This document shows positions 38,650 to 41,994 of a stretch of 64,000 bases of DNA, piece by piece. This DNA is from an uncultured Candidatus Saccharibacteria bacterium (GTDB lineage Bacteria > Patescibacteriota > Minisyncoccia > Phycocordibacterales > DATDWN01). Every line of letters starts with the position of its first letter. Position 1 is the stretch's first letter. The stretch lies in the NCBI GenBank assembly GCA_964468795.1, contig CAYXWL010000001.1:147587-211586 (forward strand). Direction: 5' to 3'. The notes beneath the pieces are model-generated. The model was not told where the DNA came from and ran no database searches. It was given only the letters and a program-made list of their open reading frames with translations. The translations under genes were made by a program, and so were the position numbers.

Positions 38650-38745
38650 GTGAAATTCGACGTGAGAATTTGAAAATGTGAGAAGCTTTATTTAAAATAA
38701 AGTGACGAACATTTTCAAATTGGGAACGAGAAGTTCACCAAATTT
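38650..38745 (+). repeat. Family-2 intergenic hairpin repeat, copy A
   Basis: About 85% identical to the reverse complement of 41898..41994; internal perfect 13-bp stem aatttgaaaatgt/acattttcaaatt (38667..38679 / 38709..38721). Confidence 0.6.
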
Positions 38746-38751
38746 GGAAGT

Positions 38752-39330
38752 TTAGAAGTTAACTTTAGGAGCCTCTTGGTTCGCCTGTGGCACATTAAAG
38801 TAAGCATGCTCTCCAAAACCTGAAAGTTTTGCAATCAGAGCTGATGGAAATCTTTTTACTCCAGTATTGTATGTTTGTACAAGTTGATTATATTTCATTC
38901 TTTCAACAGAAATCCTGTTCTCCGTTCCTTCTAGAGAAACCATTAGATCTTTAAAGTTTTGGCTAGACTGTAGCTGAGGGTAATTTTCCGTAATTACAAG
39001 CAATCTTCCTAGAGCTGATTCAACTTGTGATGCAGCAGCCGCCTTTTCGTCAGCTGTTCTTGCTCCGGAATATCTCGTCCTAGCTTCAGCTATCTGACCA
39101 AATACTGTCTGCTCTTGAGTAGCAAATCCCTTCACTGTGTTTACAAGGTTAGGAATGAGATCGAATCGCCTCTGATATTGGTTTTCAACCTGAGCCCACT
39201 GACCTGTAATAGCCTCGTTCTGAGATACAAATGAATTGTATTGTCCAAAACCCCAAATAAACAATAGACCTAAAACCGCAAGTACAACCACCCACTTCAT
39301 ATTCCTTTGAAAAAAGTTCTGTTCTTCCAT
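38752..39330 (-). CDS. lemA: LemA family protein
   Basis: N-terminal TM + LemA domain; TPM partner gene adjacent. Confidence 0.8.
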   Translation of the reverse strand: MEEQNFFQRNMKWVVVLAVLGLLFIWGFGQYNSFVSQNEAITGQWAQVENQYQRRFDLIPNLVNTVKGFATQEQTVFGQIAEARTRYSGARTADEKAAAASQVESALGRLLVITENYPQLQSSQNFKDLMVSLEGTENRISVERMKYNQLVQTYNTGVKRFPSALIAKLSGFGEHAYFNVPQANQEAPKVNF

Positions 39331-39416
39331 GTTTTCAGATTAAGCTTTATAACTACAGTATTATACCAGAAAAAAGCGCTTAGTACATAAGACTACATGC
39401 CTTTGGTAATTAAATT

Positions 39417-41054
39417 TTAGTACTCCATTCCTCCGCCCACTCCAGAATTTTTTTCTTCTTTTGGTTCTTCTGTAATAGCCACTTCTGTTGTAAGTAAAAT
39501 AGCAGATGCGCTTGCCGCATTTTGAAGTCCTGTTCTGGTAACTTTTAGTGGATCTATTATCCCCGAAGCAAACATATCCATAACCATTTCATCTTTTAGA
39601 GCATCGTAACCACCATTCCCTTTTGCGGACTTAACTTTCTCGACGATTATAGAACCATCACCTTTTCCACCATTTGTGGCTATTTGCTTTAATGGCACTT
39701 CACAAGCGTTTATTATAATCTCGTAACCTACTTTGAATTCCTCATTTTGACCCAAAGTTGCTTTTGCCAAATTGGATCTTACCTTTTCGCTTGCTTTAAC
39801 TAGAGCAACACCTCCTCCAGGAACAATACCCTCAGCAATAGCCGCTTTTGTTGCATTTACCGCATCTTCTATCTTGAGCTTGAGGTACTTCATCTCTGTT
39901 TCTGTTGCACTTCCAACCCTAAGAACTGCTACTCCTCCAGTAAGCTTTGCGATTCTTTCATCCAACTTTTCGATATCAAATTTTGATTTAGTACCCTCTT
40001 TCTGTTTCTTTATTTCTTTTACTCTTGCATCGATTGCATCCTTTTTTCCTTTTCCACTAACTATGACAGTCGAATCTTTCTTGGACACAATTTTTCCTGC
40101 TCTGCCCAAAATATCAAGTCCAGAGTTTTCCAATTCAAGACCTGTCTCGCTTGATACAACCTGTGCTCCAATCACAACCGCAATATCCTGAAGAAGCTCT
40201 TTCTTTCTGTCTCCATATCCAGGAGCCTTTACTGCAAGAATATTAAACCCGCCTCTAAGCCTATTTATCACTATAGTTGTCAAAGCTTCTCCATCAACAT
40301 CGTCTGCGATGATTACGAGCTCTTTCTTTCCTGTCTGAGCAATCTTTTCAAGCAGTGGTAAAATATCCTTTATTGAAGAAATTTTTTTATCTGTCACAAG
40401 AACAGGGACATCTTTATACTCCGCTTCCATCCTATCTGTGTTTGTAATCATGTATGCAGAAATATAACCCTTCTCGAACTCCATTCCTTCAACGACTTCT
40501 GATTCAACACCAAAAGTAGGTGATTCTTCTACCGTAACTACCCCATCCTTCCCGACTTTCTCTATAGTATCGGCAATGATGTCGCCAATCTCTTCTGATT
40601 CTGCAGATATAACAGCTACCTGCTTTATTTCGTCTTTCGTACTTATCTTCTTTGAAAGTTCCTTCAAGGCTTTGACTACATCTTCAGTTGCCTTATCCAT
40701 TCCAGATTTTATTCCCATTACTCCAAGTCCTGTTTCAGTGTGCTTCATTCCTTCTGAAATTATAGCCTGAGTCAAAACTACTGATGTAGTCGTGCCATCA
40801 CCTGCGACGTCGTTTGTTTTTGTCGCAACTTCTTTTATTATCTCTGCTCCCATGTTCTCGAATTTATCTCTAAGAACAATCTCTTTAGCAATTGACACCC
40901 CGTCATTTGTGATAGTTGGAGCGCCATAGCCTTTATCAAGCACAACATTTCTTCCTTTTGGACCAATGGTTGTTTTTACTACATTTGCAACTTCATCAAT
41001 ACCTCTCTTCAAAGCCTTTCTAGCATCTTCGTTAAATTTGATTTGTTTCGCCAT
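39417..41054 (-). CDS. groL: chaperonin GroEL
   Basis: 545 aa, canonical GroEL sequence with GGM C-terminus. Confidence 0.95.
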
Positions 41055-41147
41055 GTTTGAATTAGTTAAATAGTTAGATAGTTATCTAGTACTTAGTAAG
41101 TTAAAATTTTTGATTTACTTGGTACTAGTTACTCGGTACTATCAAGT

Positions 41148-41516
41148 TTATTTTAATATTGCTAATATATTTTCCTCCTTAATCAAAAACAATTCTTCTC
41201 CATCAACTGTGATTTCTTCGTACCCGTATTTAGAGAAAGCCACCTTGTCGCCCACATTCAATCTAATGGAAACAAGCTTTCCATCCTTATATTCGCCAGG
41301 GCCAACAGCTAAAACTACGCCTTGCTCTGATTTATCTTTTGATCCAGAGTCTGGCAGGATGATCCCAAAATTATTTTTAGGCATAAGCTCTTCTTTAGTA
41401 AAAGGTCTTATCAAAACCCGGCTACCTAGAGGTAGTACTTTAGAAGAATCATTTTCTGCCACTTCTTTCCTTACAGAACCAGTTTTTTTAGAAACCTTTT
41501 TTGCAGTTTTCTTCAT
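41148..41516 (-). CDS. groS: co-chaperonin GroES (with about 25-aa Lys-rich N-terminal extension)
   Basis: GroES fold (…LPLGSRVLIRP…AVGPG…). Confidence 0.8.
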   Translation of the reverse strand: MKKTAKKVSKKTGSVRKEVAENDSSKVLPLGSRVLIRPFTKEELMPKNNFGIILPDSGSKDKSEQGVVLAVGPGEYKDGKLVSIRLNVGDKVAFSKYGYEEITVDGEELFLIKEENILAILK

Positions 41517-41622
41517 ATATATGTATTACCTTAACCAATAATATGTACTCGGATATTACAATATATTTAGCTTGCCGGTCAATTATATTTAAGCCTGATT
41601 ATAGCCGTCTTTTGGCATAATA

Positions 41623-41650
41623 TTGCAAAATCAGGCATTTCTGATATGAT
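41623..41650 (+). promoter_or_regulatory. sigma70-like promoter of secG (TTGCAA-16-TATGAT), near-leaderless
   Basis: -10 box ends about 10 nt before the secG ATG. Confidence 0.35.
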
Positions 41651-41660
41651 ATAGCCCAAC

Positions 41661-41891
41661 ATGAGTATGACTGAAATGATTCCGTATATTCAGATTGTAT
41701 TGGCAGTCCTCCTTATCGGAGGCATTCTCCTACAAAGATCAGAAGCTGCTCTAGGTAGCGCTTTTGGTGGCGGAGACGCATTCTCTACTGGATATCATAC
41801 AAAGCGAGGCGCAGAGAAGACGCTATTTGTAGCGACAATTGTTGTTGCTGTTTTATTCGTCTCTACCTCTTTCGCCCTCCTACTCATCTAA
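41661..41891 (+). CDS. secG: preprotein translocase subunit SecG
   Basis: 76 aa, two TM helices with Gly-rich loop (LGSAFGGGDAFSTGY). Confidence 0.7.
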   Translation: MSMTEMIPYIQIVLAVLLIGGILLQRSEAALGSAFGGGDAFSTGYHTKRGAEKTLFVATIVVAVLFVSTSFALLLI

Positions 41892-41897
41892 ATCTTT

Positions 41898-41994
41898 AAA
41901 TTTGGCGAACTTCTCGTTCCCAGTTTAGAAATGCTCGTTAACTTATATCTAAATAAGGCTCCTCGCATTTCTAAACTCTCACGTCGAATTTCGC
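41898..41994 (-). repeat. Family-2 intergenic hairpin repeat, copy B (inverted)
   Basis: Reverse complement aligns to 38650..38745; internal 11-bp stem gtttagaaatg/catttctaaac with compensatory changes relative to copy A. Confidence 0.6.

Follow-up and report, generated by a model that had tools for sequence, protein, structure and literature searches.

Paired hairpins around groESL in a Patescibacteria genome as probable copies of a dispersed palindromic repeat located at gene ends

The closest described counterparts of the element reported here are the ERIC, Correia, bcr1 and REP repeats. Co-transcription of ERIC elements and orientation-dependent effects of these elements on mRNA stability are documented (PMC3184786, PMC10969869), and both ERIC and Correia elements, when co-transcribed, affect the stability of mRNA through RNase E or RNase III (PMC10969869, PMC3184786), the co-transcribed hairpins of Correia elements being cut by RNase III (PMC10969869). 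In the Bacillus cereus group, bcr1 repeats (~155 bp) are dispersed and transcribed, and compensatory base-pair changes keep their long double-stranded RNA structure (PMC3184786). REPs are GC-rich sequences of 20-40 nt with GTAG/CGTC heads that are linked to RAYT transposases (PMC3733652, PMC2817692). The subject of the present analysis is a stretch of 64,000 nucleotides (hereafter the window) from contig CAYXWL010000001.1 of an uncultured member of the Patescibacteria or candidate phyla radiation (CPR), in which two hairpins, copy A (38632..38754, with the sense of the element on the minus strand) and copy B (41890..42010, sense on the plus strand), stand inverted on either side of lemA, groEL, groES and secG. 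These hairpins are very probably copies of a dispersed, non-coding, imperfectly palindromic repeat of ~125 nt that resembles ERIC and other MITEs (miniature transposable elements with inverted repeats), belongs to a narrow clade of Paceibacteria and has a putative role at the level of RNA. The family is dispersed, fills orthologous spacers in some genomes and leaves them empty in others, keeps its pairing by covariation, and follows rules of placement. It appears to be undescribed, with no match in Rfam and no relevant paper in a full-text literature search, which found no MITE- or REP-like family described in CPR/Patescibacteria.

Copies A and B are the top inverted repeats in a repeat search of the window, and match each other with E = 1e-25 when blastn is run within it. 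The first-pass annotation of this DNA had placed here an inverted pair of hairpins of about 96 nt, about 85% identical, with internal stems of 13 bp in one copy and 11 bp in the other. The pair is located where it was said to be, its similarity is strong and its hairpins are real, but the dimensions differ: over 38650-38745 and the reverse complement of 41898-41994, global alignment gives 80/97 identical positions (82.5%); homology and pairing extend over ~121-123 nt; A and B alike have an inner stem of 13 bp; and each copy is a single interrupted hairpin of ~45-50 bp that spans the entire element. Alignment by MAFFT of the 136-nt stretches 38630-38765 and 41880-42015 (reverse complement) gives a mean column identity of 87%. 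The minimum free energy (MFE) of A and B is -34 to -46 kcal/mol, compared with -13 to -23 kcal/mol for dinucleotide shuffles, of which 0/200 fold as well (z of -7.2 to -10.3; on the sense strand, -7.2 for copy A and -10.3 for copy B). The compensatory changes that had been proposed for the stems are present: between A and B, 28 consensus pairs are identical, six are changed on both sides and one is changed on one side, with pairing kept in every case. These AT-rich hairpins do not stand out in a sliding scan of the window by raw MFE.

Two covariance models were applied to the window and to the fetched loci: R1, built from four sequences (copies A and B of the window and the spacer hairpins of two relatives, L014 and L018), and a second model, R2. 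By these models the window contains three copies: A (137.4 bits with R1, 128.8 bits with R2), B (131.9 and 114.7 bits) and C, at 13249..13367 on the plus strand (model match 13240-13377), which was detected by R1 at 77.6 bits (E 1e-14) before its inclusion in any model, and which scores 111.2 bits with R2 compared to 40.1 bits on the other strand. Copy C is more diverged than A and B and belongs to another subfamily, sharing a CCATATTTGGCCAAT signature with copy L025b of a relative; it lies in the spacer between the minus-strand genes for the large subunit (nrdA, 13407-16217) and small subunit (nrdB, 12214-13233) of ribonucleotide reductase (RNR), and is the sole copy antisense to its flanking genes. 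Two more copies are found in the same species within 9.3 kb beyond the start of the window (L031), one in the spacer between gyrB and an AAA_18 gene and the other in the spacer between a glycosyltransferase gene and an open reading frame (ORF), for a total of five copies in ~73 kb. Among relatives, L014 has three copies (in the lemA-TPM spacer, in a GGDEF-NUDIX spacer and, as a weak third match, after an RRM gene in an RRM-DUF192 spacer), L018 has one (secG-SBP spacer) and L025 has three (secG-SBP, lemA-TPM and TPM-NUDIX spacers), while the model search found zero copies in the loci of L022, L023, L026 and L028. The density in genomes that bear the family is estimated as one copy per ~6-20 kb, and the elements are ~120-125 nt long, contain no ORF of their own and fill the spacers in which they are found. 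A REP-like repeat, one of the options offered by the first-pass annotation, was thus essentially the right one, with dispersed copies in the window, in the same species and in three relatives. The same annotation had counted dispersed copies elsewhere against any meaning specific to groESL; such copies are found beside unrelated genes at nrdA-nrdB, at the two sites beyond the window and in the GGDEF-NUDIX, TPM-NUDIX and RRM-DUF192 spacers, and a special link to groESL is not supported.

Exact-pattern scans of genome and metagenome contig collections, which used two blocks invariant between A and B and were too specific to the A/B subfamily, gave only chance matches in GC-rich coding DNA; patterns made from the family consensus had 0 matches in viral contigs; and blastn of the element against plasmids, phages and 5,426 E. 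coli genomes gave no match. Rfam 15 has no match in the window at gathering thresholds, and none at E <= 5 that overlaps the elements in 38300-42400.

The structure of the family was evaluated in a model-guided alignment of ten copies, nine of which trained the model, the tenth (L031a) having been found independently at 76 bits. Standard pairs are formed in 91.1% of cells, as compared to 29-51% when the partners are slid by 1-3 columns; 24/40 pairs have both partners changed; and 0/500 shuffles attain the pairing or the covariation of the real alignment. The outer helix consists of 22 pairs and is 92.7% paired. Sequence conservation is found mainly in this outer stem, with 20/80 paired columns invariant versus 1/57 unpaired columns, and the termini (~30 nt) are sequence-conserved, imperfect inverted repeats that begin 5' with TA(A/G)-AACTTCCAAATYTGGCGAAYTTCT and end 3' with GAAYTTCATCCARATTGTGAAAGTTTT; they are conserved although the coding DNA of the hosts is only ~70% identical. 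Sequence varies freely in the inner 13-bp stem and in the apical stem while their pairing is maintained. By this pattern of conservation the outer stem consists of termini like the terminal inverted repeats (TIRs) of a transposable element.

The genes named in the bracketed block were borne out by Pfam: lemA (38752..39330, minus strand; PF04011, E 1e-56), groEL (Cpn60; 39417..41054, minus), groES (Cpn10; 41148..41516, minus) and secG (41661..41891, plus; PF03840). Copy A is located downstream of lemA and fills the spacer between lemA and a co-directional TPM-domain gene (37749..38618, minus; PF04536), the start of which is given by gene calls of 289 aa; the 5' end of the element includes the abutting lemA stop codon, TAA (38754..38752), and pairing in the element ends 13 nt ahead of the TPM start codon (38618). 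Copy B is located downstream of secG, which is divergent from groES, and fills the spacer between secG and a co-directional SBP_bac_5 gene (42036..43784, plus; PF00496); it begins at the abutting secG stop codon, TAA (41889-41891), and its 3' end is 25 nt ahead of the GTG start at 42036. Copy A on the minus strand is equivalent to copy B on the plus strand, and so the two are inverted on the chromosome and have the same orientation relative to transcription. The promoter region of groES is the divergent spacer 41517-41660, which has promoter-like sites and contains neither copy. The CIRCE operator of HrcA (TTAGCACTC-N9-GAGTGCTAA) has 0 matches with <=3 mismatches in the whole window, in agreement with the earlier statement that none is present upstream of groES. 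As a separate observation, the divergent groES/secG promoter spacer includes an 8-bp inverted repeat (GCCTGATT-N28-AATCAGGC, at 41593-41600 and 41629-41636) that overlaps a promoter-like site for secG and could be a candidate operator for a groESL locus that lacks CIRCE.

The abutment of copies A and B to the preceding stop codon recurs in the family. In almost every sense copy, the stop codon of the preceding gene either is the 5' TA(A/G) of the element or lies within 0-6 nt of it, and the 3' ends of the elements are 0-36 nt ahead of the next start codon. At L014a the gene has its own TAA, followed by one base and then the TAA of the element; at L014b the GGDEF reading frame enters the element by 14 nt and ends at an internal TAA (12232-12250 of L014); and at L025b the LemA protein is two residues longer and terminates at the TAA of the element (10580-10585 of L025). 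Copies are sense to co-directional flanking genes in 10/11 firm cases, or 11/12 with the weak one included (two-sided binomial p = 0.012 and 0.006, respectively), a bias that is suggestive rather than proven. In the species of the window, three copies are on the plus strand of the window and two on the minus strand, with 4/5 sense to genes, and the profile of GC skew has no origin-like feature or replichore switch that would explain opposite orientations by replication; orientation therefore tracks transcription and not replication.

Homologues of LemA place the source among the Patescibacteria/Paceibacteria. The closest relatives are 70-76% identical to the window in LemA, and at the syntenic loci the coding DNA of the relatives is only ~70% identical to that of the window, which has a GC content of 0.40, and to each other. 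In these orthologous regions the element is present, patchily, in L014, L018 and L025, and absent in L022, L023, L026 and L028. The lemA-TPM spacer is occupied in the window, L014 and L025, and measures only 5-59 nt in L018, L021, L022, L023 and L028; in L023 the element-free spacer has a classical short terminator. The window, L018 and L025 have an element in the secG-SBP spacer, which is empty in L014 (57 nt), L022 and L028, and the nrdA-nrdB spacer likewise varies between occupied and empty among the genomes compared. The same arrangement of lemA-groEL-groES and secG is found with one copy in L014 and L018 and with none in L022; L023 and L028 are also without the element, secG being uncalled in the former and groESL not being at this position in the latter. 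Between genomes, copies from one and the same position are only 50-57% identical and belong to different subfamilies, which group copy C with L025b (by CCATATTTGGCCAAT), L025a with L025c (by GGCGCA) and copy A with copy B; these subfamilies cut across genomes and positions, and copies that share a position resemble each other no more than copies from different positions do. Occupancy appears, from these comparisons, to be the result of recurrent insertion or replacement at permissive spacers and not of simple vertical descent. Two other features of a more distant relative, L026, were observed at this locus: its lemA-TPM spacer (10580-10720) has an unrelated GC-rich hairpin of ~115 nt (dG -62 kcal/mol), and between secG and groES (3523-6927) it carries a module like those of diversity-generating retroelements (bAvd, RVT_1) with AAA_5 and VWA genes.

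Several attributes by which MITEs are recognized are found in this family: small size (<~500 bp) without coding capacity, TIRs, multiple dispersed copies in one genome, and orthologous sites that are occupied in some genomes and empty in others. The family would have spread either as a non-autonomous element of the MITE kind or through recombination of one copy with another, the copies now being old. In its present sites the element may be co-transcribed with the flanking genes to form a long RNA stem-loop, intercistronic or in the 3' untranslated region, and this hairpin, which would close the RNA of the upstream cistron, may shield the 3' end against exonucleases, offer a processing site to a double-strand RNase and/or cause partial termination. 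In this way the TPM gene could be uncoupled from lemA and groESL, and the SBP gene from secG. Co-transcription and stabilization, processing or partial termination are suggested by the anatomy of the elements, by their orientation bias and by analogy with ERIC, Correia and bcr1.

Resemblance to ERIC is found in size, in the imperfect palindrome over the full length (127 bp in ERIC, which is also known as IRU and is a MITE of Enterobacteriaceae), in the TA boundary, in the patchy occupancy of orthologous spacers, and in strict confinement to intergenic spacers that are, or here would be, transcribed, in many cases at gene 3' ends. The two families differ in that the present element has no blastn match in the E. 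coli genomes, which carry ERIC, and belongs to hosts of another phylum, and in that its interior diverges strongly between copies with pairing kept, its abutment to stop codons is marked and so is its sense bias. The 22-mer core of ERIC, the ERIC2 primer, is absent from the window at <=3 mismatches. With bcr1 the present family shares a genomic distribution that is not conserved between relatives, along with the keeping of pairing by compensatory changes; unlike bcr1, which is flanked by 5-bp direct repeats, it has no demonstrable direct repeats, and it is unrelated to bcr1 in sequence. The Correia elements of Neisseria (NEMIS/CREE) are similar in length (100-160 bp), terminal inverted repeats and TA target, but they pair mainly via TIRs of 26 bp, carry promoters and an IHF site, and are nearly identical within a genome, whereas the present family pairs over its whole length and consists of old, divergent copies. 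REP/BIME and SPRITE-type terminator-like repeats are also intergenic, located at gene ends and hairpin-forming, with a proposed function in protection of mRNA 3' ends or termination; in contrast to REPs, the present elements are ~125 nt long and AT-rich, without a GC stem and U-tract. Several other identities were rejected: REP/RAYT elements and strand-specific insertion of the IS200/IS605 type on anatomy; CRISPR or TIGR arrays, the copies being single and not tandem; integron attC sites, to the RYYYAAC/GTTRRRY cores of which the 5' ends (TAAGAACTTCC) and 3' ends (GAAAGTTTT(G/A)) are a misfit, and which would have cassettes as neighbours instead of housekeeping genes; and recombination sites for the nearby integrase or serine recombinase, enzymes encoded in a tRNA-Ser island and missing next to the repeats in relatives.

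A number of observations weigh against a MITE-like origin or against a role in RNA. Target-site duplication cannot be shown, as TA(A/G) is always at the 5' boundary but TA is at the 3' boundary in few copies, and the boundary TA itself belongs to the palindrome. Neither the window nor the fetched loci yielded an autonomous insertion sequence with matching ends, and the window has no solo or extra termini and, among its annotated ORFs, no DDE transposase. Presence/absence polymorphism was not found within the species (copy A is carried by ten same-species contigs obtained from different samples, of which four also span copy B, both copies being 100% identical to those of the window), and insertion polymorphism at orthologous sites is found only between genomes that are ~70% identical. 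There are no near-identical copies within a genome, and current mobility is unproven; because within-genome copies are no closer than ~80-87% (the best pair), the family seems to be old and without a recent burst. With respect to RNA, co-transcription and any RNA-level effect are deduced rather than observed; the antisense strand of A and B folds somewhat better than the sense strand; G-U and A-C combinations are balanced (11 versus 8 cells), giving no hint of which strand is selected, or of RNA versus DNA; the sense bias is only 7/8 if distinct spacers are counted; and a consensus scan found no canonical intrinsic terminator (GC-rich stem with U-tract) at A or B, the stems being AT-rich and ~50 bp long with a 3' run of T3-5 that is part of the stem.

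Some of these points agree with the main rival explanation, a tentative possibility that the elements are purely DNA-level palindromes, selfish or neutral, with hairpins that matter only as DNA (as cruciforms, or in single-stranded DNA during transposition or replication) and 'compensatory' changes that arose by intrastrand template switching in quasi-palindromes or by gene conversion instead of selection on RNA. The strand symmetry of the pairing, evident in the ratio of G-U to A-C cells, and the concentration of invariant columns in a paired, TIR-like outer stem are compatible with such palindromes, and the function of the hairpins is undemonstrated; but a strong sense bias (10/11), aligned with transcription and not with the DNA strand, is unexpected for a palindrome that exists only as DNA, and copies that are 50-87% identical, and hence old, are all still ~90% paired. 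The age and structural integrity of the copies would also fit a host-encoded, non-mobile RNA signal such as a lineage-specific terminator, processing motif or protein-binding motif, of which the function maintains the similarity between copies. This explanation, rather unlikely as it is, draws on the occupation of the same two spacers (lemA-TPM and secG-SBP) in several genomes, and on the short terminator-like hairpins of empty lemA-TPM spacers and the unrelated long hairpin in that spacer of L026; it is weakened by the membership of same-position copies in different subfamilies, no more alike than other copies, by patchy occupancy among equally distant relatives, by the antisense orientation of copy C, and by the concentration of conservation in inverted termini, as at transposon ends. 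Somewhat less probable again is a reading in which the hairpins are a host-selected 3'-end RNA signal peculiar to this lineage of Paceibacteria and not decaying transposon relics: a long AT-rich stem-loop would begin at the stop codon, where the terminating ribosome would melt its base, a dedicated factor or RNase would recognize it by the conserved outer stem, and the stem-loop would govern termination, processing or stability from one cistron to the next in genomes without canonical terminators at those sites, with new copies made by recombination and not by transposition.

The remaining explanations are of much lower probability. A regulatory or attenuation element specific to groESL, in replacement of CIRCE, had been suggested by the first-pass annotation from the missing operator, and copy A does lie downstream of groES-groEL-lemA in the same transcriptional direction; it is very unlikely, being contradicted by anatomy, as neither copy is upstream of groES in the promoter or leader region, by the copies beside unrelated genes (nrdAB, gyrB, glycosyltransferase, GGDEF, NUDIX), and by relatives that have the same groESL locus with one copy missing (L014, L018) or both (L022). 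The same annotation also raised the possibility of an invertible or mobile segment of 3.2 kb with the inverted copies as its ends, and ~120-bp inverted repeats of ~80-87% identity could in principle allow rare homologous inversion, with a tyrosine integrase and a serine recombinase encoded 3-5 kb away. Nevertheless, the order SBP(-) secG(-) groES(+) groEL(+) lemA(+) TPM(+) is identical in the four same-species contigs from different samples that span both junctions, and is the same in all relatives that have groESL at this locus, whether both repeats, one or neither is present; the recombinases belong to the tRNA-Ser island, which is absent beside the repeats in relatives; and the block holds core housekeeping genes, so that inversion or mobility of the segment is scarcely credible. 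Just as improbable is a set of independent small-RNA genes with their own promoters, possibly antisense to the flanking genes: the slightly better antisense folding of A and B and a promoter-like pair of hexamers inside copy A would favour it, but that site falls within the variable inner stem and has no conserved counterpart in other copies, promoter-like matches are at chance level (11 found versus 9.7 expected), and there is no terminator. The element is neither an operator of groESL nor a recombination site, and the reading preferred here remains that of a MITE/ERIC-like repeat.

Other features of the window were recorded during the analysis. A riboswitch-like motif of ~75 nt occurs in two direct copies on the plus strand (2285-2362 and 6322-6397), each laid out as GAGACTTCGCA-GGCGGGTAGCCGAGRCTTGAGGAA, a 10-bp hairpin that differs in sequence with pairing kept, and then TATCCGTGCTC; 7/25 predicted pairs are changed on both sides, and no Rfam family matches at E <= 5. 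The copy at 6322-6397 is ~50 nt upstream of a PfkB-family kinase gene (6445-7437, plus), and the copy at 2285-2362 is between rpmE (L31) and prfA (RF-1), antisense to both. The gap at 54560-54920 (~360 nt, probably minus strand) has a GC content of ~0.59 in a genome of 0.40, with a promoter-like site (TTGACT-18-TATTAT) and a terminator-like end (GC-hairpin and T6) on the minus strand; its MFE z is only -0.7, small ORFs of 87-90 aa are possible, it has no Rfam match at E <= 10 and is not matched as transfer-messenger RNA (tmRNA), and it could be an unrecognized non-coding RNA or a small GC-rich gene. The low-GC (0.37) island at ~26800-35990, beside tRNA-Ser(gga) (35898-35985), encodes a type III restriction helicase (26867-29095), a DNA methylase (29097-30791), a tyrosine integrase (33077-34288) and, at 34306-35925, a large serine recombinase. 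The island, probably a mobile element that has integrated, is absent from the syntenic region of relatives, in which the distance from NUDIX to nrdA is much shorter. The GAPDH gene (11111-12130, minus) has downstream of it a spacer with the most stable local fold of the window (10893-11075; dG -72 kcal/mol for a 130-nt frame), which includes a near-perfect hairpin of ~26 bp around 10897-10945 embedded in pairing of longer range.

The finding has no bearing on the regulation of heat shock, which had made the hairpins around groESL look special. Because copies of the element supply or overlap stop codons, caution is called for in annotation of the adjacent genes. The element is of an ordinary kind, a dispersed palindromic repeat, in an unusual host group: the genomes of CPR/Patescibacteria are small and streamlined, and this family sits inside operons of their core genes (groESL-lemA, secG, nrdAB and gyrB). 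Its structure is kept by compensatory changes across genomes that are only ~70% identical. The family is thus usable as a marker for the clade, and is a candidate post-transcriptional element in organisms that are not yet genetically manipulable.

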